A stretch of 64,000 bases of DNA from Alphaproteobacteria bacterium (GCA_964291675.2 OZ219865.1:160001-224000); one strand, 5' to 3'. Shown: positions 3,732-42,366, numbered from the stretch's first letter. Notes: generated by a model not told the origin, from the letters alone. Numbers and translations: made by a program.

Positions 3732-4676
3732 TCAGACGATCCGCTCGCGAAGCCCGGCGAGCTGTTCCATCCGGCGCGCGCCGTCGGCGCCGATGGCACG
3801 CACGCAGAGATGGCCGCAGCCGGCCTCGACGAAGCCGGCGAGCCAGCCCGCCACCGCCGCCCGGTCGCCGGCGAAGACGTATTCCTCGGTCCGGATGCGC
3901 CCGGCGGGGAGGTTGTAGTAGCGCGCGAGATAGGCTTCGAGCGCGGCTTCGGCCGCTCTCGGGTCGTCGTCGATCGCCACCGTGACATAGGCGGCGCCGA
4001 CGATCTCCGCCGGGTCGCGGCCGGCCTCCTCGGCCAGCGCGCGCAGCGTCCGCCAGTCCGCGCCCCAGTCGGCGCCGCCCTCGCCGCGGCCCGACGGGAA
4101 CCAGCCGTCGAAATGCGCGGCACAGCGCCTGAGCGCCGCCTTCACCCCGCCGCCGCCCCAGATCTTCGGCCCGCCGGGCGTGAAGGGCTCGGGCGCGAGC
4201 CTCGCCCGCTCCAGCCTCCAGCGCCCGTCCCAGTCCACCGGCGCGCCCGACCACAGCGCGCGGCACAGCCGCAGCCCCTCCAGCATGCGCCCGACGCGCC
4301 GCTCGAAGGGCACGCCCAGGGCCGCGAACTCGGCATGGATCGCCGGCACGTCGCGCGCCATGCCGACGCCGAAGACGAAGCGGCCGTGCGAGATGCGGTC
4401 GAGCGTCGCAAGCTGGTGGGCGAGCAGCACCGGGTTCCTGAGCATCGGCACCAGCACCGCCGTCCCCAGCGCGATCCGCGTCGTCCGCGCGGCGATGGCG
4501 GCGAGCAGGACGATCGGGTCGTGGCGCGGCTTGGCGATCACCGAATCGCCGACCCACACCGAATCGAGCCCGATGTCCTCGGCCAGACCGGCGAGTTCGA
4601 GGATGCGGTCGGTGTCGTGCAGCCCCGCCATCGCGCGCTCGCGGGTGGGCAGGAGATAGCCGAGCTTGAGGGTCAT
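3732..4676 (-). CDS. LLM-class flavin-dependent oxidoreductase (copy B, tandem paralog)
   Basis: Same motifs; closely similar to copy A along its whole length. Confidence 0.9.
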   Translation of the reverse strand: MTLKLGYLLPTRERAMAGLHDTDRILELAGLAEDIGLDSVWVGDSVIAKPRHDPIVLLAAIAARTTRIALGTAVLVPMLRNPVLLAHQLATLDRISHGRFVFGVGMARDVPAIHAEFAALGVPFERRVGRMLEGLRLCRALWSGAPVDWDGRWRLERARLAPEPFTPGGPKIWGGGGVKAALRRCAAHFDGWFPSGRGEGGADWGADWRTLRALAEEAGRDPAEIVGAAYVTVAIDDDPRAAEAALEAYLARYYNLPAGRIRTEEYVFAGDRAAVAGWLAGFVEAGCGHLCVRAIGADGARRMEQLAGLRERIV

Positions 4677-4762
4677 GGCGCGCCCGCCGCCTCGGCGTGT
4701 TCCCGAAAGGCGTCCCTGTTCGCCGTGGCCACCGCGGCGCCGAACCCGTCGACATGGGTCAT
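4673..4762 (-). pseudogene. Truncated DUF1428-family N-terminal fragment (29 aa)
   Basis: MTHVDGFGAAVATANRDAFREHAEAAGAP resembles the DUF1428 start (MTYVDGFVAAVPTANKEAY...); ATGA overlaps at both ends. Confidence 0.55.
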
Positions 4763-7148
4763 GCCCCGCTCCCTGCGGCGCGGCGATGCGCCGCTTCCTC
4801 CACCAGACGGTGAATCCGCGCCGGCGTCAGCGGCACCTCGCGCACCTCCACGCCGAGCGGGGCAAGCGCGTCGGCGACCGCGTTGGCGACCGCGGCGAGC
4901 GCGCCGATGGTGCCGCCCTCGCCGAGCCCGCGGAACCCGCCCAGCGTCTCCGGCGGCTCGGCTTCGAGATGGGTGACCGCCATCTCCGGCACGTCGCAGG
5001 AGCCCGGAACCACGTAGTCGGCGAGGGTGGCGGTCAGGAGCTGGCCGCCCGGATCGTAGACCATCTCCTCCATCAGCGCCGCGCCGATCCCCTGCGCGAT
5101 CCCGCCATGCGCCTGGCCGTCGGCGATCATCGGGTTGATCACCCGGCCGCAATCCTCCGCCGCGACGTAGCGCGTCACCGTGACGCCGAAGGTCTCGCGG
5201 TCGACCTCCACCGCGGCGATATGGGTGGCCGAGGTCGCCGTCGCGGTAAACGGGTCGTAGACCCCGGTCGCTTCGAGATTGCCGATCTCGTCGCGGATCG
5301 GCTTCGGCACCCTTCCCATGTCGGAATAGACCGCGCGGGCGAGCTCGGCCAGGCTCATCGACCGGTCGGTGCCGGCGACCCGGATTTCGCCGGCGATCTC
5401 GATGTCGACCTCGGCGGCTTCCAGCAGATGCGCGGCGCAGCGCACGATCTTCTCCCGCACGCCGCGCGCGGCGAGGATCGCGGCCCCGCCGCCGAGCACC
5501 GCGCCGCGGCTCGCATAGGTGCCCGTCATGTGGCCGAGCGCGGCGGAGTCGCCGATCCTGACCTCGATGTCGTCGAGACCGACGCCGAGCTCGTCGGCCA
5601 CCACCTGGCTCAGCGCGGTCTCAATCCCCTGGCCCTGCGAGGGGACGCCGAAGGTAGCGGTCACCGCGCCGGTCGCGTCGACCGCCACCGCGGCGCTCTC
5701 GGTGCCGGTGTTGACCGGCATGCCGGGCGCGGCGGAGATGCGCGAGCCGAGCCCGGTGAGCTCGGCGTAGGAGGCGATTCCGACGCCGACCAGCCTTCCC
5801 GCCGCCCTGGCTTCCGCCTGCGCCGCGCGCAAGGCCTGGTAGCCGATCTCGCGGCAGGCGGTCTCCAGGCAGTCGAGGAAGGCGGAGCGGTCCCAGACGA
5901 TGCCGGACGCGGTGCGGTAGGGGAACTCGTCCTCGGCGACCATGTTGCGGCGGCGGATCTCGACCGGGTCGAGGACGAGCGCGCGCGCCGCCATGTCCAT
6001 CATGCGCTCCATGACGAAGGTCGAGATCGGCCGCCCGACGCCGCGATAGGGGCCGCCCGCCGGCTTCGGCGTCGCCACCGCCCGGGCCCGCGCCCGGTAG
6101 TTGCCCACCCGGTAGGGCCCGGGCAGGAAGCTCACCACCTGGACCGGCTCGATGCAGGCGGTCCAGGGATAGACCGAGTAGGAGCCCGTGTCGCACAGCG
6201 CATCGCCTCCAGCGCGACGATCCTTCCGTCTCCGTCGATGCCCAGCGCGGTCTCCAGGATCTCGTCGAAGGCCTGGGTGGTGGCGCGCAGGTCCTCGCGG
6301 CGGTCGCCGAACCACTTGACCGGACGGCCGAGGCGAAGCGCGATCGCGGCGAGGCACACGTCCTCGGCGTAGACCGCGGTCTTGGCGCCGAACCCGCCGC
6401 CCACGTCCGGCGTCGACACCCGGATGCGGCTGCCCGGCAGCGACAGGATCTCGGCCAGCGCGTCGCGCAGGATGCCCGGCACCTGGGTGGTGGCGCACAG
6501 ATCGAGCACGCGGGTCCGCCGGTCGTAGCTGGCGACCGCGCCCCTTGGCTCCAGCGCCATCGGGGTCTTGCGATGCACCCGGAACCTTCCGCCCACGCGG
6601 ACCGCCGCGCCGGCCATCGCGCCGTCCACCTCGCCGCGCCCGAAGGAACGGGCGGCGATCACGTTGCCGCCCGCCTCCTCGTGGATCGCCGGCGCCGCCG
6701 GCTCGGCCCCGCGTTCCGGATCGCCAATGCCCTCCAGCGGGTCGATGTCGAGCGCGATGGCGTCGGCCGCGTCCTCGGCCAGGTAGCGGCTTTCGGCGAC
6801 CACCGCGGCGACCGGCTCGCCGGCGTAGCGCACGATGTCGGGGACCAGCGGGTAGAGCGGGGTGGGGTAGTAGTCCCGCATCCGCGAGGTCGCGCGGATC
6901 GGCCGCGCGATACCGGCGAGATCGTCCGCCGTAAGGACGGCGATCACACCTTGCATGGCCCGCGCCGCCGCCGCGTCGATCCCGTTCAGCCGGCCATGCG
7001 CCACGTCGGAGCGCCGGAAGGCGACATGGGCCAGCCCGTGGAGTCGGCGGTCGTCGACGAAGTCGCCAAGCCCGCGCAAGAGCCGCCGGTCCTCGCGCCG
7101 CGTGACGCGCGCGCCCACCAGGCGCGGGGTCGTGGCGGTCCCGCTCAC
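4759..7148 (-). pseudogene. Xanthine dehydrogenase/CoxL-family molybdopterin large subunit with a 1-nt frameshift near 6205
   Basis: N-half (RREDRRLLRG, DVGGGFGAK) and C-half (PYRGVGR, QGQGIET, GLGEGG) lie in different frames; junction reads CTG GAG GC GAT GCG CTG TGC GAC. Confidence 0.85.
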
Positions 7149-7250
7149 GGCGCGGTCCCGCCGGGGCACGCGGAAGCGCCACTCGATACGCCGTCACAAT
7201 CGGCGCGGGCCGACCATGACGGCGAGGAGGCGAGCGGGGCTCCGGCCGCG

Positions 7251-7440
7251 GCCATGCCGGACTTGTTCCGGGGGCCAGCCACGCCGATGGGGATGGCGGC
7301 GTGCGGGACTTGCTTCAACGGCCCTGCTTTCGTCATGGCCGGACTTGTTCCGGCCATCCATGCAGCCTCTCCGTCCGCGAGGCGGCGGGCAGGGAGAGGC
7401 GGCGGTGCCAGTGGGTGCCCGGAATACGTCCAGGCATGAC
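7251..7440. repeat. Cluster of alphaproteobacterial REP-like palindromes
   Basis: ccatgccggacttgttccgg (~7251), gtcatggccggacttgttccggccatcca (7332) and an inverted copy tgggtgcccggaatacgtccaggcatgac (~7412). Confidence 0.7.
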
Positions 7441-7498
7441 GGCTCTGGGGGAAAGGCCGGGGCCGGGGAAACGGCAGGCGATCTCGCAAGAGACGGCA

Positions 7499-8911
7499 CT
7501 AGCGCAGCAGCGCGCGGAAGCGCGACGAGGAGGGGATCTCGCCGGCGCCGGTATAGGCTTCGTGGTTGGCCGGGATATGGTCGGCGTCGTAGAGGTAGTT
7601 CACCATCAGCCCGGCCGACTGGGCGAGGCCCTTGGAGGAGGTGTCGGCGAGCCAGTTGACGCGCTCCATACGGGCGCCGTTCGACAGGTGGAAATGGGCG
7701 ACCGGGTCGAGCGCGCGGCCCGACTTGCGCTTCTCGCGCGCGAGGTAGCGCGCGCAGAGCCGGGCCAGGGGGGCGGCGAGGGCCTTGGCGAGCGCCGCTT
7801 CGGCGTGCCAGTCCGCACGCGCCAGCAGGGCAGCGAGGCGTTCGGCGTCGCTCCCGCCGTTGCCGTGCAAGGCGGCCAGCGCGCGCCGTTCGCCGCGGGT
7901 CAGCAGCTCGTCCGGCGCCTCGGCCAAATAGCGGTCCAGCCAGGCCCGGAAACCCGGGACCGGCGACAGCGTGGCGAAGGTCTCCAGCCGCTTCATCTCG
8001 GCGGCGAGCTGATCGACCACGCGCTTGATCAGGAAGCCGCCGAAGCCGATCCCGTCGAGCCCGCGCTGGCAGTTCGAGATCGAGTAGAAGATCGCCGTGT
8101 CGGCGTCGTCCGGCACGTCCCGCGCCCCGCGCGGCGCGAGCAGGGTCTGGATGTTGTCGGCGATGCCGGCGGTCAGCGCGACCTCGACGAAGATCAGCGG
8201 CTCGTCCGGCATGCGCGGGTGGAAATAGGCATAGCAGCGCCGGTCGACGCCGAGCCGGGACTTCATCTCTTCCCAGTCGGAGATCTCGTGCACCGCCTCG
8301 TATTCGATCAGCTTCTCGATGATCGCCGCCGGGGTGTCCCAGGTGATCTGGCGGAGCTCAAGGAAACCCACGTCGAACCAGCTCGCCAGCAACGATTTCA
8401 AATCCGCTTCGAGATCGGCGAACACCTCGTCCCCGGCCGCGAGCCCGAGCAGGGTGGCGCGCATTTCGACCAGGAACTTCACGCCGTCGGGCAGCGCGTT
8501 GAACTGGGTCAGCAGCCGGAGCCTCGGCGGCTCCAGCGCGGCGCGGAGCTGGCGCTCGCGGCGCTTGCGCCCGCCCCAGTCGTCGAGCTCGTCGAGCCCG
8601 ACCGCGGCGGCGGCGATGGCCTGGCGGTCGGTGTCGAACTCGGTGCCGAGGATGCGGAGGAAGCGCGCGCGCCCCTCCGCGGTGAGCGACATGTAGGCGC
8701 GGCCGAGCGCGGCGGCGCGGGCCCGCGCCGAGACCTCGCCGCCGCGGCCTTCGAGGCAGGCACGCATCTGCTGGCGCACCCGGTCGGCGTCGCGCCCGGC
8801 GAGATCGGGGCCGAGCGGCGCCGAATCGTCGGACGTGCCCCCGGTGATGTCCCGCCACTGGCCGAGGACCCGCTGGAAGGTCCGCTGCAGCAGGTTTTCG
8901 TTTCCGTTCAC
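7499..8911 (-). CDS. Malonyl-CoA decarboxylase
   Basis: YEAVHEI, RRCYAYFHP, IFYSISNCQRGLDGIGFG, FATLSPVPGF, DPVAHFHLSNGA; GTG start overlaps the amidase stop. Confidence 0.93.
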   Translation of the reverse strand: MNGNENLLQRTFQRVLGQWRDITGGTSDDSAPLGPDLAGRDADRVRQQMRACLEGRGGEVSARARAAALGRAYMSLTAEGRARFLRILGTEFDTDRQAIAAAAVGLDELDDWGGRKRRERQLRAALEPPRLRLLTQFNALPDGVKFLVEMRATLLGLAAGDEVFADLEADLKSLLASWFDVGFLELRQITWDTPAAIIEKLIEYEAVHEISDWEEMKSRLGVDRRCYAYFHPRMPDEPLIFVEVALTAGIADNIQTLLAPRGARDVPDDADTAIFYSISNCQRGLDGIGFGGFLIKRVVDQLAAEMKRLETFATLSPVPGFRAWLDRYLAEAPDELLTRGERRALAALHGNGGSDAERLAALLARADWHAEAALAKALAAPLARLCARYLAREKRKSGRALDPVAHFHLSNGARMERVNWLADTSSKGLAQSAGLMVNYLYDADHIPANHEAYTGAGEIPSSSRFRALLR

Positions 8912-10206
8912 CGCGCCATTCCCTCGTCGCGCAGCCGCGCTGCGGCGCGCAACAGATACCCGTCCCTGCCCGGCGCCGCCACAAGCTGGACGCCGAGCGG
9001 GAACGGCTCGCCCGGCACCGGGACCGAGAGCGCCGGGTAGCCGAGGAAGGAGAACGGCGCGGTGTAGCGCCCGAGCGTGCCGCGCACCGGCACCGTCTCG
9101 CCGTCGATCTCGATCTGCGACTGTCCGATCCGGGTCGGCGGGAACGGCGTCGTCGGGGTCGCCAATATGTCGATCTCGTCGAAAATCGCCCGCATGGTCT
9201 CGCCGTAGCGCCGGCGGAATTGCTGCGCCCGCGCCACCCAGACATGCGGAATCGCCGCCGCCGCGATCCAGCGCGCGCGGGTGAAGCGGTCGAACTCGCC
9301 GATCCGGTCCCCGATCTCCTCGAAATGGAGCGTCGCCGCCTCCGCCGAGGTGATCAGCAGCGACGCCGCGACCGCCCGGTCGCTGTCGGCGATCTCGACG
9401 CTCCGTTCCGCGTCCAGGCAGTGGGCGGCGCGGCGGACCGCGGCGAAGACCTCCGGCACCCCGCCGCTCGCGAAATGGCCGTCCGCGACGGCGATGCGGA
9501 GGCCGTCGAGCGGGGCGCCGAGCTGCGGCGCGAGCGGCTCGGTCCGTTCCGTGCCCGCCGCCGGGTCGCGCGAATCGGGCCCCTGGATCGCATCGAGCGC
9601 CGCGGCGGCGTCTTCCGGCGATTCCGCGAGCACGCCGACATGGTCGAAGCTCCAGGCTAGCGGGGCCGTGCCGGCGCGCGAGACCCGTCCGAAGGTGGGC
9701 TTGAAGCCCCAGACCCCGCAAAGCGCCGCCGGCACCCGCACCGAGCCGTTGGTGTCCGAGCCGAGCGCGAACGGCACCATGCCGGCCGCGACCGCGGCGG
9801 CCGAGCCGCCCGACGAGCCGCCGGCGATGAAACCGGGGTCGCGCGGGTTCCCGACCGCGCCGTAATGCGCGTTCTCGCCGGTAAAGCCGTAGGCGAACTC
9901 GTCCATGTGGGTGGTGCCCACGAGGATCGCCCCGGCCTCCTTCAGCCGGGCGACCGCCGTCGCGTCCTCCGCGGCCGGCGGAGCGTCGGCGCGGACCTTC
10001 GAGCCCGCGCGGGTCGGCCGCCCGGCGATGTCGAACAGCTCCTTGGCCGCGAACACGCGACCGGCGAGCGGGCCGTCCCGCCCCGGCCGGCGGGCGGCGG
10101 CGATCGCCTCCTCGCCGAGGATTTCGGCGAAGGCGTTGATCCGCGGATTCTCCCGCCCGATCCGTTCCAGCGCCCGGGCGACGGCGCTCTCGGCCGCGCC
10201 CGTCAA
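8908..10206 (-). CDS. AtzE-family amidohydrolase (amidase signature family)
   Basis: GGSSGGS, GSDTNGSVRVPA, MDEFAYGFTGENAHYG; TTG start overlaps the upstream stop. Confidence 0.85.
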   Translation of the reverse strand: MTGAAESAVARALERIGRENPRINAFAEILGEEAIAAARRPGRDGPLAGRVFAAKELFDIAGRPTRAGSKVRADAPPAAEDATAVARLKEAGAILVGTTHMDEFAYGFTGENAHYGAVGNPRDPGFIAGGSSGGSAAAVAAGMVPFALGSDTNGSVRVPAALCGVWGFKPTFGRVSRAGTAPLAWSFDHVGVLAESPEDAAAALDAIQGPDSRDPAAGTERTEPLAPQLGAPLDGLRIAVADGHFASGGVPEVFAAVRRAAHCLDAERSVEIADSDRAVAASLLITSAEAATLHFEEIGDRIGEFDRFTRARWIAAAAIPHVWVARAQQFRRRYGETMRAIFDEIDILATPTTPFPPTRIGQSQIEIDGETVPVRGTLGRYTAPFSFLGYPALSVPVPGEPFPLGVQLVAAPGRDGYLLRAAARLRDEGMAR

Positions 10207-10382
10207 GGCCGGTAGACCGCCGGCGGGTCGGGGGATTCGGGCGGCTCGAACCCGTCGATGCGCTCGTACAGCGCCATGAACTGGGCGAAGTTCGCGGCGA
10301 CGCCAGGGCGCAGCGCGGGGTCGATCGCGATCCCCAGCACCGCGGCCGCCCGGTCGACGAAGGCTTCGGCGTCCTTCTCCAT
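10203..10382 (-). CDS. AtzG/HpxX-like (DUF4089) small amidase partner
   Basis: 59 aa, AAAVLGIAIDPALRPGVAANF...PPAVYRP, immediately upstream of the AtzE-like gene. Confidence 0.75.
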   Translation of the reverse strand: MEKDAEAFVDRAAAVLGIAIDPALRPGVAANFAQFMALYERIDGFEPPESPDPPAVYRP

Positions 10383-10541
10383 GGCTTGCCTTTCCGGTGA
10401 TTGCAGGCAACCTACACGAGCCCCGTTCGGCATGACAACGCACCGCGACCTCCTGCGTCAGTTCCCCGCTCCGCCGAGCTCCGCACGACCCCGCCCGCGT
10501 TTCGGTATTGATTTGGTATGGATTCGGCGCCATTTAAGGTC

Positions 10542-10805
10542 ATGGAATTCGAGTTCGATCCGGAGAAGAGCGCGACGAATAAGGACAAGCACGGAATCGA
10601 CTTCGATGACGCGCAGCCCCTTTGGGACGATCCGTGGCTGCTCGAAGTGCCGGCGCGCACGGTGGACGAGCCCCGCTTCATCGTCATCGGAAGGATCGGG
10701 AGCCGGCACTGGTCGGCGATTTGCACCCGCCGCGGCGAACGCATTCGGATCATCTCGGTCCGCCGCGCCCGCAAGGAGGAGGTTGAGCGCTATGAAGGGA
10801 CATGA
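10542..10805 (+). CDS. brnT: BrnT family toxin
   Basis: MEFEFDPEKSATNKDKHGIDF...IRIISVRRAR. Confidence 0.9.
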   Translation: MEFEFDPEKSATNKDKHGIDFDDAQPLWDDPWLLEVPARTVDEPRFIVIGRIGSRHWSAICTRRGERIRIISVRRARKEEVERYEGT

Positions 10806-27917: not shown

Positions 27918-28405
27918 CCTCCTAACACACTGTTATCATTGATATAATTTTTCTGATACAAAATCCGTAACCGAATAGTCACCGGATTCGATCATATCCT
28001 AGGCGACGCATGAGTAAACGTTTCGACGGGCCGTCCTGATCGGCTGAAATGCGCCGTTTTCGCGCGCCGGACGCAGTGGCGGGCGGTGGGCTCCACGGCC
28101 GGATGGAACGTTTACGCGCGTGGCGCATCCCGCGCCTGCTGAGCCCCACCTATCCGGAATCGCCCATCCCACAGCAACAGCCTTGGCCGCCACGTCGGTA
28201 CATGGTCCAGCCGCCTTTGACAGTGGAGCGAGGTTCCAAGGCCGCGCCATGGCGGTGCGCGTCATAGTTGATCCACACGGTTCAAAGTCCAAAAAGTATT
28301 GCTTTTCACCTGAGAGCAGTTATGTTATTGGTTTTCGTGACCAGTTATCGTTTTGCACGAAATGGCGGCGAGTTCGCACCGCTACGGGAGCGTAACAATT
28401 TAGTC

Positions 28406-29956
28406 ATGAACACCCCCGCTCAGAACTGTTTTTCGGGTCCTGTTACCGTCTTTCAGGAACGGCGTATTCCCGTGCCAGCGACACCAGCGGGATACGCTGC
28501 GCTGGTCGGGGCATACAATCTGCGAGTGCCGCTTCCCCGGAACCTCAGCGCCATTGGTGAACGGCACAGGTTCATCGAGCAAGACGGCTGGCGCATCTAT
28601 TCACCGCGCTACACGCCGGACGCAAGCCTGGAAGGTCATCTCACCTTCGCTCTCAAATATGAAGGGCTGGACCTGGCCGTCCTCAAGAGGCTGTTTGTCG
28701 CGACCGGCCCGTCCCCTTTGGCCGACCTGGTCAAGGCCCAGCCAACAGGCGCCTACGCCCGGCGCATCTGGTTCCTCTATGAGTGGCTGACCGGAGCGCA
28801 GCTCGATCTCCCGAACGCCAGCAGGGGGGTCTACCCGCTAGTCGTCGATCCGAACCAGCAATATGCCGTCCCCGCGGAAACGTCCCCGCGGCACCGGGTC
28901 AAGAACAATCTGCCCGGCACGCCGGCTTTTTGTCCTTTGGTGTTCCGCACCGAAGCACTGGAGGGTTTCATCGCCACAGACCTGCAAGCACGCGCGCAGC
29001 AGGCCATTGCCGCCGTGCCGCGTGATCTGCTCGCGCGCACGGCTGCCTTTCTGCTTCTCAAGGACTCGAAGTCGAGCTTCGCCATTGAGGGCGAGCATCC
29101 TCCGCAGGACCGCATCCAGCGTTGGGCCCGCGCCATTGGCCAGGCCGGGCAGCAATCGATTGATCATGACGAACTCCTGCGTTTGCAACGCATCGTGATC
29201 GGAGACGACCGTTTCGTTCATCTCGGTCTCCGGGCCGAAGGCGGCTTTGTCGGTCAACACGACCGCGAATCGCGTATGCCGATCCCCGACCACATCAGCG
29301 CCCGATCGGATGATCTGCCGCAGCTGGTGGAAGGATTGGTCGCTTTCGACCGAGAATCCGCCCAACAGCTCGATCCGGTAGTTGCTGCATCGGTTCTGGC
29401 CTTCGGATTTGTCTACATCCATCCCTTTGACGACGGGAACGGCCGGCTGCACCGTTACCTGATTCACCACGTCCTGGCCCAGCGCGGTTTCAACCCGCCG
29501 GGACTCGCATTTCCGGTATCGGCGGCGATTCTGGACCGGATCGACGACTACCGTGCTGCGCTCGAAGATTACTCGCAACGCTTGCTGCCGTTCGTGCGGT
29601 GGGAACCGACGGAACACGGCAATGTTCGGGTGTTGAACGATACCGGCGACTATTACCGGTATTTCGATGCCACGCCGCAAACCGAGTTCCTGTTCAGCAG
29701 CGTGCAGCGGACTATCGAACTGGACTTGCCACAAGAAGCAGAATTTCTGAGGCGGTACGACGCGTTTCGGAACGACCTCAACCTGATCGTCGATATGCCA
29801 GATCGCCTGTCGGATCTACTCTTCCGATTCCTGCACCAAAATGCCGGTACGCTTTCTCGCCGCCGGCGGGAAAGGGAATTCGCTGCGCTGACAGACGACG
29901 AGGTCGCGCATATCGAAGCCATTTACCGGGAAGCATTCGCCGGCGACCAATGTTGA
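28406..29956 (+). CDS. Fic family protein
   Basis: HPFDDGNGRLHR Fic motif; SKSSFAIEGE inhibitory-helix-like motif. Confidence 0.92.
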   Translation: MNTPAQNCFSGPVTVFQERRIPVPATPAGYAALVGAYNLRVPLPRNLSAIGERHRFIEQDGWRIYSPRYTPDASLEGHLTFALKYEGLDLAVLKRLFVATGPSPLADLVKAQPTGAYARRIWFLYEWLTGAQLDLPNASRGVYPLVVDPNQQYAVPAETSPRHRVKNNLPGTPAFCPLVFRTEALEGFIATDLQARAQQAIAAVPRDLLARTAAFLLLKDSKSSFAIEGEHPPQDRIQRWARAIGQAGQQSIDHDELLRLQRIVIGDDRFVHLGLRAEGGFVGQHDRESRMPIPDHISARSDDLPQLVEGLVAFDRESAQQLDPVVAASVLAFGFVYIHPFDDGNGRLHRYLIHHVLAQRGFNPPGLAFPVSAAILDRIDDYRAALEDYSQRLLPFVRWEPTEHGNVRVLNDTGDYYRYFDATPQTEFLFSSVQRTIELDLPQEAEFLRRYDAFRNDLNLIVDMPDRLSDLLFRFLHQNAGTLSRRRREREFAALTDDEVAHIEAIYREAFAGDQC

Positions 29957-29998: not shown

Positions 29999-30619
29999 TT
30001 GCCTTCGTTCAATCCCTACCAAGCGCCCCGGAGTCTGCACGCCGTGTTAGATCATATCGTAGCAATCATTAACGATCTCGACGCAACCGATTGGATCGCA
30101 ATTGCCTCGATGCTGACGGCGGTCCTTGCCACGAGTGAAGCCTTCCGAAGCCGCCGCATCTCGTCCCGAATGTACGATATCGCCGTTCGTGAAAAACTCC
30201 GAACCGAAACACCTCTCGACGTCTATCTGGCGGACTCGCGCATCCTCCACGTCCCCAGGGAACAGCGCCGAGTCTATGTGTTCGAACTCTTGATCACGAA
30301 CAAGTCGGCGGCGCCCAATTCCATCAAGCAGTTATCGCTCTCCCTTGACTACGACCAACAGAATCGACCTGCATCGAATCTTGCGATTCAGCACGACCCA
30401 AAAGCTCTCGATACCTCTCCTACCGGCCAAGTGGGCAACGCTCTATCCGTACCCAGACTTATCGCTCCCGGCGAGGCCATCTCGGGAACCGCTCTCTTTC
30501 CCGTCGCCGATGTCATTTTGGAGCATGGGCCAGTCGAAATGTACACGGTACAGCTATTCGATGCTCACGACAGGGCTGCCGAATGCCAGGCAATCCTTCT
30601 GAAGGAAACCGAGTTGTGA
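29999..30619 (+). CDS. Hypothetical protein with an N-terminal hydrophobic helix
   Basis: Lower-GC ORF; DWIAIASMLTAVLA segment; stop overlaps the next start; start uncertain. Confidence 0.6.
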   Translation: MPSFNPYQAPRSLHAVLDHIVAIINDLDATDWIAIASMLTAVLATSEAFRSRRISSRMYDIAVREKLRTETPLDVYLADSRILHVPREQRRVYVFELLITNKSAAPNSIKQLSLSLDYDQQNRPASNLAIQHDPKALDTSPTGQVGNALSVPRLIAPGEAISGTALFPVADVILEHGPVEMYTVQLFDAHDRAAECQAILLKETEL

Positions 30620-31275
30620 AACCAAAGCGCAATATCGTCAAGATCCCCCTCCGAGACGCCACCGAGGCCGATCCGGTTCCGATCGTCGCCGACGGAGCCA
30701 TGGCCACGGCTCTTTGGGGCGAGGGCCGCATGATCCCGGTCTTGATAATCGACACGTCGACCCGGCCAGACGTCGAGAACTTCATCACCTCGCAGTATTG
30801 GGCGGAAATCGTCGGAGATACCGAATCCAGCTGGTCTTTCAAGAAACGCCCGAGAAGCCTTCCACGGCCGATCTTGCTACTGAACTTCATCAAACCAAGC
30901 CAGTGTCTCTTGATGATCGAGTTCGACCTTCCCCGCCAAGGCGTGCTGGTCGATCAAATCCTCTGGTCTCACGGCGTCTACTTGCAGCCGGGCCGGCCAG
31001 GCGACCGGCTGGCTACCACTCTCAAGAACCCGAGGATCACCGTCGAGGTGCCACCCAACGAGATATTCCGTGGAGAGTTCGAGAATGTTTACAAGAAAGC
31101 CGTATTTCGCCACTTGCGTAGCGAGGGGATGTCTCGCGCCCATGCGAAGCAGGCGGTCAACGCTTACCTCCGAATACAACGAGATGTCTTTCATCAGCGT
31201 GTTCCCTTCCGCCGCCCAAGCGACGACGCCGTGTCGGAGTTTCCAGATGAGACCACCGACTCCCGTTCGTCATAG
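30616..31275 (+). CDS. Hypothetical protein
   Basis: GTGA overlap with the upstream ORF; globular-protein-like composition. Confidence 0.62.
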   Translation: MKPKRNIVKIPLRDATEADPVPIVADGAMATALWGEGRMIPVLIIDTSTRPDVENFITSQYWAEIVGDTESSWSFKKRPRSLPRPILLLNFIKPSQCLLMIEFDLPRQGVLVDQILWSHGVYLQPGRPGDRLATTLKNPRITVEVPPNEIFRGEFENVYKKAVFRHLRSEGMSRAHAKQAVNAYLRIQRDVFHQRVPFRRPSDDAVSEFPDETTDSRSS

Positions 31276-31504: not shown

Positions 31505-31602
31505 CGTCAAGCTGCCCGCCGTGGCAGCCTGAGCGTCCCGGCCCAACCCGCCGGTTACCGGGACCGACGCCAGGCTCTTACGCCCAGTGACAAGACACAA
31601 TC
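31505..31602 (+). mobile_element. Degenerate right end of an IS256-family element
   Basis: VKLPAVAA* and the downstream sequence align with 33625-33722 of the intact IS256. Confidence 0.75.
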
Positions 31603-31693: not shown

Positions 31694-31857
31694 TCTGTGG
31701 ATATGATGGACAAGCCGCTGCGCGCCTTGCCCACATTCCCACAGGCGCCACAGCAGCAACAGGAAGATCGATCCAAGGGGATTCTGGCGGCCTGAACTTC
31801 AACCGGAATACACCTTAGCTCGGCCGTCAGGCTGTCCGAAAAGGCGAGGCCACCTCA
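31694..31857 (+). mobile_element. Probable IS3-family right-end relic
   Basis: Tail VDMMDKPLRALPTFPQAPQQQQ...LAA* followed by ctgtccgaaaaggcgaggccacctca ending in CA. Confidence 0.45.
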
Positions 31858-32272
31858 GCAGATAGAGAGCCGGAGAGCGCTGTTTGGGCCTCAATTGACC
31901 TCTGCCAACTGGTCCACGTTTTATGATTCGGAGCTTGATCCGATGATGGGCCATGCCTTGCCCGATGCTATGTTTGGGTGGCGCGGCTCAGACAGGGGGA
32001 CACCGTAGCAGGCCCTCATTTTGTCGATTTCAGTCAGATAACGCGCCGCGATATCGTTCGGCCCGCCATCGGTCGTCATCGCAAGCAGCCTGCGCCTCAA
32101 CTCGGCGCAAGGTACCGACACTATGTTGTATGACCCCCTCCAGCTATCAGAGGGCACTTGCTTGGTTACCACGCGCTTGATCGTGATCTGTGAAGTGAAG
32201 TCTTGACCGTCTTCGAACTCAAATTGAATCAACAGCATGAGACCGTCCGCGTCGGGATTCTCAGCAACTGCC

Positions 32273-33722
32273 GGTCGTGTCCCCAGACGTGGTGTAGGAG
32301 CTCTGGCCTTGGTTTGTAGCTGTGGGTAAGCAGCGCGCCGCCGCGACCGCCGCGAGTCTGGCGGCGGCGGGCTGCTTATCCACAGCGGAGGCCATCGCGG
32401 TTCCGGTTTAGGGTTGGGTCGTGCAACGCCAACCCGAACCTGAGGAGGAACCGCGATGACCGACGACATGATGGCCCTGCGCGGGCTTTTGGAGAAGAGT
32501 TCCGACGCCGATCTGCTGCGCGAGATGATCGGCTTCTCGGCCGAGCGTCTGATGGCGCTGGAGGTGGAAGGGCTGACCGGCGCCGCCCATGGCGAGCGCA
32601 CGCCGGAGCGGATCACGCAGCGCAACGGCTACCGCGAGCGGGCCTGGGAGACCCGCGCCGGCACGGTGGCGCTGAGGATCCCGAAGCTCAGGACGGGGAG
32701 CTACTTCCCCGGCTTCCTGGAACCGCGCCGGATGGCCGAGAAGGCACTCACGGCGGTGATCCAGGAGGCCTACATCCAGGGCGTGTCGACGCGCTCGGTC
32801 GACGACCTGGTGCAGGCGATGGGGATGTCGGGCATCTCCAAGAGCCAGGTGTCCAGGCTGTGCGCCGAGATCGACGACAAGATCGAGAGCTTCCTCGACC
32901 GGCCGCTGGAGGGCGAGTGGCCCTATCTGTGGCTGGATGCGACCTATATCAAGATGCGCGAGATCGGGCGCATCGTCCCGGTCGCGGTGACCGTCGCGGT
33001 GGCGGTCAACGACCAGGGCCGGCGCGAGGTGCTCGGCATGGCGATCGGCCACTCCGAGGCCGAGACCTTCTGGACCGCCTTCCTGCGCGCGCTGACCGGC
33101 CGCGGGCTCAAGGGCGTCAAGCTGGTGATCTCCGACGACCACAAGGGGTTGAAGGCCGCCGCGACCCGCATCCTCGGCGCCACCTGGCAGCGCTGCCGCA
33201 TCCACTTCATGCGCAACCTGCTGGCCCATGCCGGCCGTCAGGGAAGGCGCGTCGTGTCTGCCTTCGTCGCCACCGCCTTCGCCCAGGACGACGCCCAGGC
33301 CGCGAGCGCCCAGTGGCGCCTGGTCGCCGACCAGCTCAGGCCCAAGGCGCCCAAGCTCGCCACCCTCATGGACGACGCCGAGCACGACGTCCTCGCCTAC
33401 ATGACCTTCCCCAGGGAGCACCGAACCAAGCTCCACTCGACCAACCCCATCGAGCGGGTCCATGCCGAGATCAAGCGCCGAACCAACGTCGTCGGCATCT
33501 TCCCCAACGAAGACGCCGTCACCCGCCTGGTCGGCGCCATCCTGCTCGAGCAGAACGACGAGTGGGCCGTCGCAAGGAGATACATGACACTGGAATCCAT
33601 CGCTCAGACCAGCGACAATCTCACCGTCAAGCCGCCCGCCGTGGCAGCCTGACCCTACCGGCCCAACACGCCGGATACCGCGATCGGCGCCGGGCTCTTA
33701 CACCACGTGGCGGGACACGATC
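32273..33722 (+). mobile_element. IS256-family insertion sequence (1450 bp)
   Basis: 24-bp TIRs matching 20/24 (ggtcgtgtccccagacgtggtgta vs gatcgtgtcccgccacgtggtgta); 8-bp TSD caactgcc at 32265-32272 and 33723-33730. Confidence 0.95.
32456..33652 (+). CDS. IS256 family transposase
   Basis: [48 protein letters not shown]. Confidence 0.97.
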
Positions 33723-36700
33723 CAACTGCCTGTGCAAGGACCGAAAGGCCCGGCGGAGGTGGCACGCTCGCCAATGTACGATAAACACGTAGTCGCAGTT
33801 CGGAGTACTGATCCATCAAACTCGCTAGGCGTCTGCTCATGTCCGATGCGCCGCCTCTATCCGCTCGATCCAACACACCTCCCGCTATCAGGTCTACAAG
33901 ACGCGACGCAGCGGACATGGTTCCTCGGCCGCACACGGAATCACGCCATTCCCGGCTTGAATATAGCTGAGGCTCATTTTCTGCGAGCTGAAAGAGCGCG
34001 TCTTCTGCATCGTCTCCGGGCGCATATTGTAACGCGCCTACCACTTCTTCCAACACAGCCATTGTCCAGTGTGGTTGGGGTAGGTCTTTTAGGATGTCGA
34101 TAATCTCCGAAGGGCCATTTGTGAACGGAAGAGCCATCAGCAAATCCTGTAGCTCACGCCCCTGCATGAGAATCCAAGGTTGTTCTTCACCGGCTTCTAA
34201 CAACTCCGCAATGCCTTGCTTTACCAGTTCTACATCGATTAGCTCCCCAGAGAGGATGAGGTTGGTCAGGAGTGGCCCACGGCTCCGCCAGTCAACCATG
34301 TCGAGCAGGGCGTCAAATAAGTCTCTTCTCACGCCGTGTGGAAGGCCAGCAGCAACAGTGCCGAGGGCGACTGCACGATTCTTTGCGTCGTCCGTAGCCT
34401 TTTCAGCAATCAGCTTCTCCACGGCCGAGAAGATGGCATCGGCTTCCGCAGATGACACGTTTGGCTCTTTTTCTCTCGCTTCTCGCTTCTCGCCGATTCG
34501 AGAAAAATCCCTCGACCGTATCCACCACATGTCGTCGCGAGGTTCGTTTGTCTCTCGCCATTGACCTGCGAGTACCAATGCAGCTAGTTCGCCAAAGTCT
34601 TCATCAAACAGATAACTTTTCATCAACTCCGTTGTCTCAGGACAACGAATTGCAAGAAAGGCATTTTGGTACCAATTGATCCAAGACATTCGTGCTTCGT
34701 TTGTGGCGATACCCTCGCGGTAGCCCTCTGCGTGCGCTTGCTCCCTGAATGCTCGCCAGCGTCGCAATTCCTCGTTCAGCAGCCGCTCCAAGACTCCAAG
34801 CAGTCGCGGTGATGGCGCATGACCTGCTAGCGATGCCACCGAGGCGAGCTGCTCACGTGTTGAATCAGGCGAAGCTAGCAGCGCCTGCCCCCAGTCCTCT
34901 ACATACTTCGCAATTGTGTCGTGGGCTTCGACATTGAACGGCCGACCTCCCCTGTGAACTCCATCCCCTTGACGACGAATTAAATTCGTGAACTCACGTA
35001 TCTGGTGATTGCTCGCGTCCTTGGATCGCAAGCGGATTGCAGTAAGTAGATGCGTCGTCTTTGCGGATCCGATACGGCCCCTTATGACACTGTGGCGCTT
35101 AGCGGCCTCCTCATCATGCCTTCCATCGCGATCTTGCACCCGTTCTTCCAACTCCAACATCCGGTCAATCAACCGGCCCACCGCTTGAGGCCCGAGCAAC
35201 GACGCCGCGACATCGGCACGGTAATCGCGACGGCCCTCGGAGAGTGCAATGTCCAGAATGGCCTCATCCTCCACTGCAAACTCGGCTTCGGCCATAAGCT
35301 CGGCCGCCTGACCTGGAAGTTCGAGGCCCGCGCGCACGCGTGCAAGGATGCCTTCTGCCACGGCGCGCGGGAAGCGCTCACTCGCACCGTGAATGAGCTT
35401 TGCGACACCGTCGTTTCTTTCCGTGATTTCAGCTTCCGTAATCGCTATCGCTAGTTCAGCCTCTGTGTCGTCACCTTCCGGGCCATTGAGCAACGCGGAG
35501 ATTCGATCATAGGGCGGGAATCCCCGCGCCCGGCTCCGCTCACGTGCGGCCGCGAGCCTCTCTGCGACGCTACTTTTGGTTACGCGGTCGAATAGGTTCC
35601 TCTTTACCAATTGATCAAACACTTCGTTTTCAGCATCATGCAGCACGTCTATGATGTGTCGATCGGCCCGTCGGAACGCGAGCGCCTCGGCTACCGCTAC
35701 CCTCACTTCGGCTGCAGGATCAGTCTTGGCTACCGCCGCCGCGAGATCCAGTCCGTCCAGTCCACTGTCAAAAACTATTTCGGCAAGAATGCCTTCTCGA
35801 AGTTTTGCTGGGAGTGCTCGAATTCTGTCAGCCCCTTCGATACCTAATATTGAGGGTCGAAAGCGTCTGCTAGAACGTAGGGAGGCAATCTGGACTTGAT
35901 CGTCTACGTTCGTCATCAGTGGCCAGACGTACTCAAGGAAATCCTCGTGACCCGAAGTGAGCATGAATCTGACGGCATGATCGACCGTTCCGCGGGTATG
36001 CCAGCAATCAACAAAGCCCAGAACGTTCGATTTCACGCGCTGCCACACTGCGTCAGTGGATCGGTAGATCATTTCCGCGGAGAGGATAGGGTCCAGTTCA
36101 AGGGCAACAAGAATGGCTTCGCCGCAGGCCGCTTGCTCCGCCTCGTCTCCGCGCGCCAGTCGTTCACATGCAAATAGAATGGGTTCTTCCCACGCTCGCT
36201 GATCAAGAACGTCTGCCTTCAACTCACCGAGTGAGCGCTCATCGCTGACGCTCTGGCGCATTAGATTTTCCACGAAGTGAGAGGCATACCATTCCTGTAT
36301 TTGCTGGTGTTGGAACGAATAACCATGTGGTTTGTCGATTCTAATCAGAACATGGTGATCGACAAATATCTCAAGCACCTCACGGGGCTCGGGTCTGGCC
36401 GAAATCTGACCTTCCACAACGAAGACCTCACTGCTGTCCGAAATGGCGCTGCGTGCGGTGACCTCGACAATGGTTGTGTTCGCCGCGCGGGTCGCAGTAG
36501 CTCCTAAGTCTGCCAGGTACCGTTCGTGTAAGCCGTGCGTGACCTGTCTCAGCGCCTCAGCTTTCGGGTAGTCCCCTTCGTGAACCGCAACGAAATGTCG
36601 CAGAACCTCTTCTTTCGTCGACGGGATTGGTTTGCCTTCGGGAAGAGAGAGTAGCGCACTTAAGTACAAGGGGATCGTCACAAGTTCGCGCACGCCGGGC

Positions 36701-37796
36701 GTGCGCCACGCTTCATCTAGCAAGCGCTCGCCCGAGTCGCCACGCAACGCCCGAGCGATTTCAATCTGCTCTGTCTCGTTGAGCGATGGGAGAGATACCC
36801 GTTTGCCATCGATCGGAACATCAAGTGCTTGCTTGCGAGTCGCTATTAGCAGGTTGAGATCGGGCAGCTCCATTTTCAGCCGCCTAAGCTCGGCTGCCGC
36901 ACGTTGGCGTGAGTCGGCGTCCAGTTCGTTCCAGCCGTCTAGCAGCAGGAACACACCGGGGTTGGCTGCAATGCGTCGGAATTCGTTTTCTGCAACGCCT
37001 CGGAAGCTAGCTCGCTCCAAGATTGATTCGATCAGCGACAAGTCGCTCGTCGACCACTCGCCAAGAGGAACTACGATTGGCGATCCATACCCGTTCTCCA
37101 AGACTGCTTCAGCCAATTGAAACACCGCGGTCGTCTTGCCCATCCCGGGTTCGGCGACGACGACTAGATCGTCAAGGGTTGCAAGCGCCGCTGCCAGTCC
37201 TGATGTGCTGACTCGTTCATCAAGGCCATCCACTCGAAACGTCCTAGAGATTGCATTGGCCGACCAGGTGTCCGCGCGGCGAAAGGCTTCTAGATTTTTG
37301 ACGGCGACAACTCGCAGGACTTCATACATCTCGTCATCCCCAGGCTTGGGGATTGCACCCTCTTTCATCGGATCGAAATACGTGACACGGCGCCATGACC
37401 AAGCACTTGCGTTCCGCTTCCATTCGTGAAGTAACTCAACGGTGAACATCGGGTCTTGGCTATCCACAAGCCTGGCGTGTGTCTCACACAACCAAACTCC
37501 GTTACGTGCGGACTTTCGATCTTCTGGCGACATATCGGAATCGTATCGGGGGCCGCCAGGAGCCGCGGCGCATATGTGAGCAGCGACCCCAATATCGTTT
37601 ACGCCGTCGCCTTCTGAATTTGAACCGACGGTAGGCCGACGACACCAGGGGCAAGAACAGTGCCAGCCAGCTTGCTTTCCGATCTGGCGTCTTGTCGGCT
37701 CTGTAAAATTATCTCGCCTAGAAGTGCTCATTCGGTATCCACTTGCTCGCACAGCACACTGTCAACTGCTCCCCAACGGGCCTTATCGGCGCCGTC

Positions 37797-37960
37797 TCGA
37801 GCTGCCGCCTAATGGATTGCCGGCGAAGCCCCGCGAGCTGATAGCGCAACTTCTCGATGAGGAGGTGGCGGTTGCGTAGGTCGGCCTCTCGGGGGGAGAA
37901 TTCGGCCTGCGCTGAGCGCACCATGCCTTGAAGCGCGGAAACATATTCGGGCAGCGCGAC
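37797..37960 (-). mobile_element. Fragment of IS66 TnpC N-terminus
   Basis: RNRHLLIEKLRYQLAGLRRQ leucine-zipper-like segment typical of IS66 transposases. Confidence 0.45.
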
Positions 37961-38068
37961 CATGGCGGTATAGTAGCAGACCAAACCGCCTGTTATTATA
38001 CTCAACCTATTGTATATAAATGTTTTTCATCCTACCGCAAGCGGTCGCCAGGCGTGCCTCGACGCCCG

Positions 38069-38137
38069 ATCGCGGTAGGGACGGCCGTTGCCAGCCGCAC
38101 GGATCCGTACGTGTCCGACTAAGGCATACGGCTCCTA
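38069..38137 (-). ncRNA. Group II intron domain V-VI remnant (3' end only)
   Basis: Minus strand GGAGCCGTATGCCTTAGTCGGACACGTACGGATCC (DV with AGC triad) then ...GGCAACGGCCGTCCCTACCGCGAT ending in AT. Confidence 0.75.
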
Positions 38138-38546
38138 CTGCCTGTGTGTGACGAGGGAGCGTTGCTCCGGCCACGGGTGGGTCACCTTTCAGTCTCTTGC
38201 AACTCCGGGATTGCATTGTCCAAGTTCATTTTGAAGAGCCTACACGACCTTCTTGCCTCATACGCGATCCCGCATCCAGACCGGTAGCCGTGCGTCCGTC
38301 AGCCCCGCGGCTGTCCTCGGTTTTCCCAGTGCCATCCCGGTGGCTCCCAGAGTGCCCGTAATCGCATAGCAATCAGCTGAATTCCACAACCAGGCAGTTC
38401 GAGTCGTCGCCAGTCGCGCCCGGCCGGCGTTTCGGCGTCATGACCCGGCATCTCCAATGAGGCCTCCTTCAGCGTCTTCTTGACCTCGATTGTGGGCGAC
38501 GTCGACGCCGAATCGAAACCGCCTCTCCGGTCGCCTGAGCGGCATG

Positions 38547-40705: not shown

Positions 40706-41428
40706 ATGGAAACGAGGGGACGGAAGAACGCGGCCGGGGATTGGTTGCAATCGGAGATTCTGGACCGCGGCGTTTCGGCCGCGATGATCGTCATGGCCTT
40801 CGCGGGGTTTGCCGTGGGGTTCGCGGTCAGGAGCCTTCCGATCTTCGATTTCGAGACGGGAGCGTTCTGGACTGTGGTGGTTGCGGTCGCGCTTTTTCTG
40901 TCGTTCGGCATGCTCCTGGTGCGGCTCCGGCGCATCGATGCGACCTGGATCCCTGGATTGCGGGCCGAGCGCCGGGTGGGGGACGTCATCGAGCATGCCC
41001 TCGCGCGGCCGGGCTGCGCGTTCGCGCATGACGTCAAGGAAGCCCTCGGCGGTTCGGGCAATGTCGATCACGTCGTGATGACCCCGGTGGGGGTTTGGGT
41101 GGTGGAAACCAAATCGAACTGGCTCGACAAGCGACACTTTCCCCCGGCGCTGCGTCAGGTCGCCGGGAATGTGAGCCGCGTCCGCCGCCATCTCGACACG
41201 TCTCTTCCGGTTCGCGGTGCGCTGATCATCGCCGACCGCTGGGATCGTTCGCTGGAGTCGCGGCACGACTGGAACGGAGAGCCGGTGACGGCGTTCGGTC
41301 TCAAGACGTTCTGGCACCTGCTGCGCGCGGAGGGCGCGCAAGTCGGAGACGGCGGGTCCGCACAGGCTACGGCGAGGGTCGAAAAAGCCGTATGGGACCT
41401 CGGTTCCACCCGCCATCTGGGGTCATGA
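40706..41428 (+). CDS. NERD (nuclease-related domain) membrane protein
   Basis: Two hydrophobic helices, then GLRAERRVG...HDV...GNVDHVVMTPVGVWVVETK. Confidence 0.8.
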   Translation: METRGRKNAAGDWLQSEILDRGVSAAMIVMAFAGFAVGFAVRSLPIFDFETGAFWTVVVAVALFLSFGMLLVRLRRIDATWIPGLRAERRVGDVIEHALARPGCAFAHDVKEALGGSGNVDHVVMTPVGVWVVETKSNWLDKRHFPPALRQVAGNVSRVRRHLDTSLPVRGALIIADRWDRSLESRHDWNGEPVTAFGLKTFWHLLRAEGAQVGDGGSAQATARVEKAVWDLGSTRHLGS

Positions 41429-42366
41429 ACCGGTGGCGGTGGCGGATTCGTCGACGGATGCGGCGGACGAGGCGGTTCGCGAGGATCCTGATCCTGGCCG
41501 CGATCGCGGCGGGCGCGGCTGCCGCGCTGCCGACTTTCGACCGGAGCGGCATCGGGGCCTCGTCGGGGCGGTTCATCGAGGCTGTTGAACAAGAGGTCGG
41601 TCCAGCCGCGGACCGCGTTGCGGAATGGCTGGAACGACGGGCGCGCGCGACCGGCGACCGCATCGCCGCGCTCACCGGCGAATTCGGCGACACGGCCGAA
41701 ACCGAACGGGAACACCGTGTTCGCGTCTACCGCGGCCCCCCGAACCGGTCGCGCCCGGCGTTGTCGGGCCCGGCGCGGGCTATCGACGGCGACACGCTCG
41801 ACGTGGCGAACGTGCGGGTTCGACTCCACGGCATCGACGCGCCGGAGAGCGCCCAGCGCTGCCGGACCTCCGGTCGGTACTGGCTTTGCGGGCGGGAGGC
41901 AACGCGGGCCCTGGCGGCCCGGATCGGCGGCCGACCGGTGGCATGCGCGGAGCGCGACCGGGACGGTTACGGGCGGGTCGTGGCGGTCTGCGCCGTCGAC
42001 GGGCTGGACCTCAACGAATGGATGACGGCCGAGGGCTGGGCCTTCGCCTACCGGCGCTACTCCGGCGACTATGTCGCCGCGGAGTCGCGTGCGCGCGCGG
42101 CGCGGCGGGGCATCTGGCGCGGCGAGGTCGTGGAGCCTTGGGAATGGCGCCGCGGCAAGCGTCTTCCGGGTTCCGCGCCAGCCGCGCGGCGGGACGGTGG
42201 GCGATGCCGGATCAAGGGGAACATCGGCAGGGACGGAAGGCGCATCTACCATGTGCCGGGCGGGCAATATTACGGCCGGACGCGGATCGACACGTCGCGG
42301 GGCGAGCGCTGGTTCTGCTCGGAGCGCGAAGCGCGGGCGGCGGGATGGCGGCGGTCGAACCGGTGA
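41425..42366 (+). CDS. Thermonuclease (SNase) family protein with a C-terminal Cys-containing domain
   Basis: AIDGDTL, RLHGIDAPE, DRDGYGR, CRIKGNI...ERWFCSEREARAAGWR. Confidence 0.88.
   Translation: MNRWRWRIRRRMRRTRRFARILILAAIAAGAAAALPTFDRSGIGASSGRFIEAVEQEVGPAADRVAEWLERRARATGDRIAALTGEFGDTAETEREHRVRVYRGPPNRSRPALSGPARAIDGDTLDVANVRVRLHGIDAPESAQRCRTSGRYWLCGREATRALAARIGGRPVACAERDRDGYGRVVAVCAVDGLDLNEWMTAEGWAFAYRRYSGDYVAAESRARAARRGIWRGEVVEPWEWRRGKRLPGSAPAARRDGGRCRIKGNIGRDGRRIYHVPGGQYYGRTRIDTSRGERWFCSEREARAAGWRRSNR

Follow-up and report, generated by a model that had tools for sequence, protein, structure and literature searches.

Within a 64,000-nt stretch of DNA from an Alphaproteobacteria bacterium (GCA_964291675.2 OZ219865.1:160001-224000; hereafter the window), a receptor gene is encoded on the minus strand in two pieces, from 37731 to 33723 and from 32272 to 31921, with an insertion sequence (IS) of the IS256 family lying between them. 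The upstream piece (33723..37731) holds 1336 native codons from an ATG at 37731 and encodes an HNH domain, a NACHT module, and a solenoid, its last 8 nt being the right copy of a target-site duplication. The downstream piece (31921..32272) holds the last 114 codons and the stop codon and encodes, according to Pfam and alignments, the NCAB2 domain and a conserved C-terminal tail. We consider it likely that this locus represents an NLR-type immune receptor of the bacterial NACHT kind, encoded by one gene, carrying an HNH DNase effector at its N-terminus, and knocked out by a recent IS256-family transposition.

The upstream part of the gene was recovered in an open reading frame (ORF) scan as a minus-strand ORF of 1365 aa (33655..37752), and a second minus-strand ORF (31921..32625) reads through the NCAB2-coding piece and ends at 31921. 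In silico excision of 1458 nt, comprising the element and one 8-mer, yields a frame of 4374 nt whose only stop codon is the terminal one and which corresponds to 1457 codons from a GTG at 37752 or 1450 codons from the ATG at 37731, the start position found in the aligned homologues. The insertion point falls after codon 1336 of 1450 and thus 114 codons ahead of the stop. A first-pass annotation, made from the sequence alone, had placed an IS256 element about 115 codons before the stop, flanked by a perfect 8-bp target-site duplication and interrupting a 1450-aa frame, and all of these features were recovered here. When the restored protein is compared to 17 intact homologues, the junction is gap-free in 17/17 with conserved residues on both sides, and both pieces match complementary parts of one 1450-aa family in a protein database search (E = 0). 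The two pieces are a single gene cleanly split by an IS256-family element. The product on record for the locus (P0003) is 1358 aa long, and its last 22 residues are IS-encoded (22 codons and a stop codon by translation; 33655..33722, minus strand). The insertion thereby swaps the last 114 residues, containing NCAB2 and the conserved tail, for 22 unrelated ones. As also pointed out in the first-pass annotation, the gene has a lower GC content (56.1%) than the window (67.9%) and its flanks (66-69%); the stretch from 27.5 to 38.5 kb without the IS has a GC content of 58.2%.

The N-terminus is an HNH nuclease domain of the Cap5-type subtype (37381..37710, minus strand; PADLOC, PDB, and alignment), with a conserved Cys cluster and conserved His59, Asn84, and His92 (residue numbers of the HNH and NACHT parts are counted from the GTG at 37752). 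Residues 15-124 match HNH effectors of defence systems (PADLOC PDC-M68A, 2.7e-24; CBASS SAVED-HNH, 3.8e-14). Among PDB entries, this part matches 9om4 ("HNH endonuclease", 1.3e-7) and, in all cases more weakly, the "SAVED domain-containing protein" chains 8ysq (1.1e-3), 7rwm, and 7rwk, which we take to be Cap5. Across 20 sequences, the residues C32, C37, H59, N84, C89, and H92 are either invariant or reach at least 90% conservation, and they align to 9om4 and 8ysq. The Cys zinc cluster, the catalytic His, the structural Asn, and the metal-binding His of beta-beta-alpha-metal nucleases of the Cap5 type can all be assigned. A Zn-binding HNH-type domain had been proposed on the basis of the motifs CSCPWC, AAHI, GGPR, and NGVWLCETH; all four are found in the translation (residues 32-92), and the profile and structure matches and the conserved Cys/His/Asn set agree with this assignment.

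The central part contains a NACHT-type P-loop NTPase core (36763..37164, minus strand; Pfam and Foldseek) with the Walker A and Walker B motifs noticed earlier, GMGKTT and LLLDGWNE, located in the translation at 37129-37146 and 36925-36948, respectively. Residues 197-330 match the Pfam NACHT profile (PF05729) with an E value of 9.3e-6 and 26.0 bits at a gathering cut-off of 26.7. A NACHT match at E ≤ 0.01 is present in 15/20 family members, and among the best 120 proteins from the database search, 7 carry a precomputed PF05729 assignment, one being the locus's own product. The Walker A motif satisfies the GxxxxGK[ST] consensus, with the G, G, and K invariant in 81 sequences, and the Walker B motif reads DGWNE, with D, W, N, and E invariant in 81/81 aligned sequences and a nearly invariant G. 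Compared to the NACHT Walker B signature D[GAS]hDE (10.1101/2022.07.19.500537, cited throughout from part of its text), the motif keeps the small residue and the second acidic one, with Asn in place of the first acidic residue. An AlphaFold2 model of residues 8-1207, built from the 81-sequence alignment, reached a predicted local distance difference test score (pLDDT) of 86.5 and a predicted template modelling score of 0.61. When this model was searched against the PDB with Foldseek, NLRC4 (4kxf, 2.6e-10) was the best match, followed by NOD2 (5irn, 5irm), NLRP9, and NLRP3, with Avs4 (1.8e-7) and Avs3 (8.7e-7) ranking below these animal NLRs. As modelled, the ATPase is a NACHT-type STAND module with an NLR-like NOD-module fold of NBD, helical, and winged-helix domains, and the earlier STAND/NACHT assignment is thus supported by both the profile matches across the family and the fold match to NLRC4.

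The NACHT module is followed by an all-alpha HEAT-like solenoid, the presumed sensor, of which about 830 residues precede the break (33723..36201, minus strand; AlphaFold2, Foldseek, and HEAT_2). A second AlphaFold2 model, covering the last 961 residues of an intact, 66%-identical homologue (locus L014; pLDDT 88.3), shows an all-alpha solenoid that ends in a small alpha/beta domain, so the long helical C-terminal region anticipated in the first-pass annotation is modelled as an alpha-solenoid. Foldseek returned only generic HEAT/ARM matches for the solenoid (CAND1, CRM1, transportin, and condensin; TM-scores 0.2-0.28), and Pfam HEAT_2 was detected in 6/20 family members. The downstream piece carries the NCAB2 domain (PF22726, "NACHT C-terminal alpha/beta 2"; 31948-32184, minus strand; Pfam) with an E value of 1.8e-28 and 99.2 bits at a cut-off of 27, followed by a C-terminal tail (...EPRHP...SGK.WP) that is nearly invariant in the family alignment. 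Searching the ESM Atlas with this NCAB2-coding piece returned nothing above noise level (scores of 0.82). NCAB2 was found in 19/20 aligned members (alignment A1), the sole exception being the truncated window protein. It is thus kept in 19/19 intact homologues scanned, which answers the earlier question of whether homologues possess the distal 115 aa. It is also annotated on 114 of the 120 best database homologues, which are approximately 1445-1480 aa long. Profiles and models together confirm a layout of N-terminal effector, central NACHT, and C-terminal sensor. The effector-STAND-sensor architecture proposed at first is therefore matched by profile or fold in each of its three parts, with the suggested PADLOC comparison and structure prediction returning the HNH profile and the NLR-like fold, respectively.

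The element that splits the gene (32273..33722, plus strand) is 1450 bp long, as delimited by its genome copies, and its terminal inverted repeats, each approximately 27 nt long, are imperfect (85% complementary). Its plus-strand transposase ORF (398 aa, 32456..33652) is of the Mutator/IS256 type (Pfam Transposase_mut, 1.4e-119; NCBIfam "IS256 family transposase", 2.5e-100). An identical 8-mer flanks the element at 32265-32272 and 33723-33730, representing the left and right copies of the target-site duplication. Members of the IS256 family are characterised by a Mutator-type DDE transposase, terminal inverted repeats, an 8-bp duplication, and a length of approximately 1.3-1.5 kb, and all of these hallmarks are found here. 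Its nearest plasmid-borne relatives are ISMtsp13-like elements from Alphaproteobacteria (77-80% identical). The genome contains eight full-length copies with 0-4 mismatches, as well as one 87% copy and fragments. The copy inside the receptor gene is identical (0 mismatches) to two other copies, and 6/8 copies are flanked by perfect 8-bp duplications, indicating that the element is active and the insertion recent. Apart from the insertion, no decay is seen in the receptor gene: a count of private deviations at columns with at least 97% conservation gives 6 for the restored protein, and for 106 full-length homologues a median of 4, with 15 as the highest value. Both the identity to other copies and the undecayed state of the rest of the gene agree with the recent insertion proposed earlier. 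The minus-strand ORF at 31921-32625 mentioned above has 234 codons, starts with a TTG inside the IS, runs antisense to the transposase, and continues in frame into the NCAB2 piece (NCAB2, 7.2e-28). It is probably a chance product of GC-rich DNA, and separate expression of the tail from it could be conceived.

IS-free alleles were sought in four public runs, which were compared as assembled contigs that drop rare variants. In X1, the probable source run, a 307-nt contig (depth 2) joins 32266 to 33725 and skips exactly 1458 nt, and it differs from the window at 34/307 positions. A 2439-nt contig in X4 (depth 12) runs through the insertion site uninterrupted with approximately 13% differences. 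Given this divergence of about 11-13% (about 87-89% identity), both contigs represent alleles of related organisms, and an uninterrupted allele thus exists in nature in relatives of the window organism. No IS-free contig of the same strain was seen in the four assembled runs, in which rare variants would be dropped. Regarding the suggestion in the first-pass annotation that the gene may be switchable by IS excision, such a switch may exist but is unsupported by these contigs, the only IS-free ones being those of the divergent relatives. In the RNA (metatranscriptome) run X3, coverage lies almost wholly over the IS, and one 197-nt contig (depth 2.9) matches the receptor gene exactly at 34949-35137. 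As an RNA library can contain DNA, this contig hints at transcription only weakly, if at all.

The family to which the receptor belongs is large. Of the 8000 candidates scored in a word-based search, 1337 proteins reached E ≤ 0.001; apart from the locus itself, the best match is 76% identical and 1460 aa long. Relatives are encoded in 164 of 247 candidate stretches (one-genome-per-species contigs). Neighbourhoods and interruptions were counted in the best 80 of these 164 loci, which belong to Alpha-, Beta-, Gamma-, and Deltaproteobacteria, Nitrospira, and Acidobacteria. The gene is single copy in its own genome, and an orthologue is absent from the 60 related genomes searched (11 from the same genus), in which only a 25%-identical STAND protein and an isolated HNH match were found. 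Mean pairwise identities are 72% for HNH, 75% for the NTPase, 61-63% for the solenoid, and 68% for the NCAB2 region, and proteins from Nitrospira and Alphaproteobacteria are 50-57% identical. This even, high conservation of the sensor leans toward a conserved ligand, possibly a host factor. NCAB2 is conserved like the rest of the protein and the tail is nearly invariant, which indicates that the domain is under selection. Several other family members are broken as well. A homologue in locus L075 was independently split by an IS3-family element (9463-10793), and one in L065 by an IS110 plus rve element (6582-9351). The homologue on the Cupriavidus necator N-1 megaplasmid pBB1 (L094, 4704-6304) is split by an IS3-family element, with NCAB2 in the downstream ORF. 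Seven more of the 80 loci consist of two ORF pieces without a large insertion, which could be due to frameshifts, stop codons, or assembly errors.

The genes found next to the 80 homologous loci include tyrosine integrases (n = 9), serine recombinases (n = 9), AbiEii (n = 6), AbiEi-like proteins (n = 6), and HipA (n = 4). A second STAND protein of about 1320 aa adjoins the gene in 20/80 loci (L026 at 3034-7002, L029, L030, L032, L035, L036, L041, L043-L045, L047-L051, L059, L074, L080, L083, and L092), in most of them upstream, co-directional, and abutting. It has sub-threshold matches to AAA_16 and nSTAND5 and a weak match to the Cap4 nuclease, and the arrangement recalls paired NLRs. This partner is absent from the window locus and no neighbour is common to all 80 loci, so a multi-gene system was rejected for the window's copy. 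In the window, a gene for a 562-aa Fic/DOC-domain protein (28268-29956, plus strand) that matches the full PADLOC profile PDC-S24 (3.3e-205) as well as SoFic (3.5e-17) is convergent with the receptor gene and shares its low-GC stretch, with two ORFs (29999-31275) in between. Mobile-element fragments occur on both sides of the receptor gene (31505-31602, 31695-31858, and about 38003-38425); they include an 83%-identical remnant of an IS256-type right end and a repeat that recurs at two further genomic sites with 84-86% identity, with the upstream repeats being weaker (74-77%). Taken together, the low GC content, the patchy spread, the flanking mobile debris, and the integrase, Abi, and Fic neighbours are typical of a defence islet that spreads by horizontal transfer.

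Among known systems, the receptor is most readily compared to bacterial NACHT (bNACHT) proteins, which defend against phage and for which HNH is listed among the DNase effectors (10.1101/2022.07.19.500537). The same source, as far as its available text goes, defines the NCAB domain and describes "hybrid" sensors of repeats and a small domain for bacterial NACHT proteins. The window family shares with bNACHT proteins the tripartite effector-NACHT-sensor layout, an HNH effector, an NCAB-type domain, and folds that are nearest to animal NLRs. It differs from the tested bNACHT proteins in its DGWNE Walker B motif and in combining HNH with NCAB, neither of which appears in the legend of Figure S3, where the domains of the tested proteins are given as LRR, HEAT, REase, TIR, TM, NNH1, and NCH1 (10.1101/2022.07.19.500537). 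As in Avs proteins (Avs3/Avs4, PDB 8dgc, 8dgf; Avs7-24), a nuclease, a STAND module, and a helical sensor are combined in a single polypeptide, and Avs4 and Avs3 were among the Foldseek matches. STAND sensors bind phage proteins, and Avs proteins oligomerise upon this binding and activate their N-terminal nuclease (10.64898/2026.01.04.697583, likewise cited from part of its text). Unlike in Avs, animal NACHT NLRs outrank the Avs structures in the Foldseek search, and no Avs model was among the PADLOC-DB v2.0.0 matches, the 14 matches at E ≤ 1 consisting of 13 on the HNH part and a weak match to mad8 (0.014). No meaningful match to the receptor was found in NCBIfam.

In the literature searched, we found no experimental work on the HNH-NACHT-NCAB2 family and no occurrence of "NCAB2" or "PF22726", and literature on HNH, NACHT, and phage defence, including the available part of PMC13092281, yielded nothing on this family. 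The family could correspond to one of the 589 STAND clades in the survey 10.64898/2026.01.04.697583, and the supplementary tables of that study and of 10.1101/2022.07.19.500537 may list the clade. Accordingly, the description as uncharacterised in the first-pass annotation holds for experiments, of which none were found, but not for the domain types, which had already been described (10.1101/2022.07.19.500537): the architecture class is known for bacterial NACHT proteins, and the HNH-HEAT-NCAB2 lineage is widespread and experimentally untouched. The HNH domain is of the same subtype as in Cap5 (HNH-SAVED, CBASS) and 9om4, with the Cys cluster and the AHI...N...H motif. Unlike Cap5, the receptor lacks SAVED; its matches to the SAVED-HNH models are confined to the HNH part, at profile positions of about 3-112, and the remainder of the protein consists of NACHT and solenoid; by analogy, activation would occur through NACHT oligomerisation instead of a cyclic nucleotide. 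For the interruption itself, IS256 reportedly inserts into and excises from the ica operon of Staphylococcus epidermidis. The window element resembles that case in that a gene is interrupted by an IS256-family element, an 8-bp duplication is present, and precise excision is possible in principle, but it is only a member of the same family, and excision was not observed in the assembled contigs.

By analogy with bNACHT and Avs proteins, the intact receptor would have an anti-phage function. The HEAT-like solenoid and NCAB2 would keep an ADP-bound monomer auto-inhibited, and the NACHT module would be released when a phage protein, or a host factor altered by the phage, is bound. The module would then exchange its nucleotide and oligomerise, and the oligomer would juxtapose the HNH domains, resulting in DNA degradation and abortion of the infection. 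The truncated allele is most likely non-functional, as the NCAB2 domain it lost appears to be under selection, and a cell is unlikely to tolerate a constitutively active truncated form. Several points weigh against an immune receptor inactivated in this way. The Pfam NACHT score is slightly below the curated cut-off (26.0 vs. 26.7), and the Walker B motif agrees with the NACHT signature only in part. With 61-63% identity compared to 75% for the NTPase, the sensor is unusually conserved and does not display the diversification that an arms-race receptor should have. No full-length PADLOC v2 model matches the receptor, only its HNH part being covered. We found no report of a tested family member, and the legend of Figure S3 cited above names neither HNH nor NCAB. 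Ordinary genes also recur as neighbours (ChaC, LysR, and PAS kinases, 5/80 loci each), and the truncated allele is only presumed to have lost its function.

Alternatively, the insertion might act as a reversible off-switch, in which rare precise excision between the 8-bp repeats would provide phase-variable immunity for a costly or auto-toxic nuclease. With a perfect duplication and a frame that is otherwise intact, excision would give back the exact original gene, and the IS hits in three further lineages fit a cost of carriage. Going by the title of Hennig and Ziebuhr (J Bacteriol 2008), precise and transposase-independent excision of IS256 is reportedly in print. However, those three hits are at different sites and involve different IS families, which is more like ordinary gene loss than a dedicated switch, and the X1 contig that skips the element comes from a relative, with no IS-free contig of the same strain seen. 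As contigs drop rare variants, this test of excision is weak in both directions, and we regard such a switch as unlikely. We consider it quite unlikely that the truncated 1358-aa protein is still active, with NCAB2 being dispensable or regulatory, or that it is complemented by a separately made product of the 234-codon ORF. HNH, NACHT, and about 830 solenoid residues are untouched by the break, the ORF does continue from the IS in frame into the NCAB2 piece, and the X3 contig is a weak hint of transcription. Yet NCAB2 is present in all intact members scanned and in nearly all of the top homologues and is conserved as if under selection. Moreover, DNA with 68% GC commonly contains long antisense ORFs, and the RNA library may have contained DNA.

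The strong conservation of the sensor across phyla, as between Nitrospira and Alphaproteobacteria, might also point to a conflict or suicide module whose target is not phage, acting on plasmids or other mobile elements or causing stress-induced death while guarding a conserved host factor. bNACHT25 has been reported to sense via the host chaperone DnaJ (PMC12169576, in the part of the article available). In the known cases, however, guard-type sensing of host factors is still anti-phage. The homologues' neighbours are Abi, toxin-antitoxin, and STAND genes and integrases, and the Fic protein encoded near the receptor gene is itself similar to a candidate phage-defence protein, making a non-phage target very improbable. 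Finally, with eight near-identical IS copies in the genome, one copy could in theory have been misplaced into an intact gene during assembly, and no X1 contig among those listed bridges either junction with at least 31 nt on both sides. A mis-join would not yield an 8-bp target duplication at the IS ends, a pattern that flanks 6/8 copies, and an X1 contig without differences (32070-32298, depth 15) extends 26 nt into the IS. As the genome was also assembled into only two contigs, we regard an artefact as almost inconceivable. An inactivated anti-phage receptor thus remains our preferred interpretation. More speculatively, and with a low probability in our view, the HNH-NACHT-HEAT-NCAB2 lineage might be a guard-type NLR class whose evenly conserved solenoid and nearly invariant tail monitor a conserved host component instead of a variable phage protein, whose cost or auto-toxicity makes it a recurrent IS target (four independent hits), and in which an excisable IS256 element serves as an on/off switch for immunity at the population level.

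If an intact member were shown to defend its host, a widespread family (at least 164 species genomes from Proteobacteria, Nitrospirota, and Acidobacteriota) would join the experimentally grounded bacterial NLRs, adding an HNH DNase output and NCAB2, a C-terminal domain that has yet to be studied. For this domain, the natural truncation offers a ready-made test, as the allele may be either dead or constitutively active, and the recurrent IS hits illustrate the fast loss of costly immune genes. Current views are not overturned by these findings, which represent a clean example rather than a surprise.

Some additional features were observed around the receptor gene. A consensus promoter scan found nothing upstream of it (4 sites vs. 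2.1 expected, all internal), and an AT-rich stretch at about 37990-38045 (minus strand) with a perfect TATAAT approximately 260-310 nt upstream of the start codon was not reported by this two-hexamer scan. The ORF at 37718-38005, initially thought to resemble the N-terminus of an IS66-type transposase, was dropped as such, having no Pfam match and with 37753-38000 being unique in the genome. On the other side of the gene, depth rises and contigs fray at 31857 in run X1. Further away, a plus-strand ORF of 423 aa (41095-42366) encodes a staphylococcal-nuclease domain (3.2e-14) and weakly matches the PADLOC profile C3a212 "SNc+LTD" (1.9e-6). The window is located on the smaller of the two contigs (recorded as 1,151,546 bp for the receptor protein) of the 4.81 Mb genome, and the islet may thus reside on a secondary replicon.

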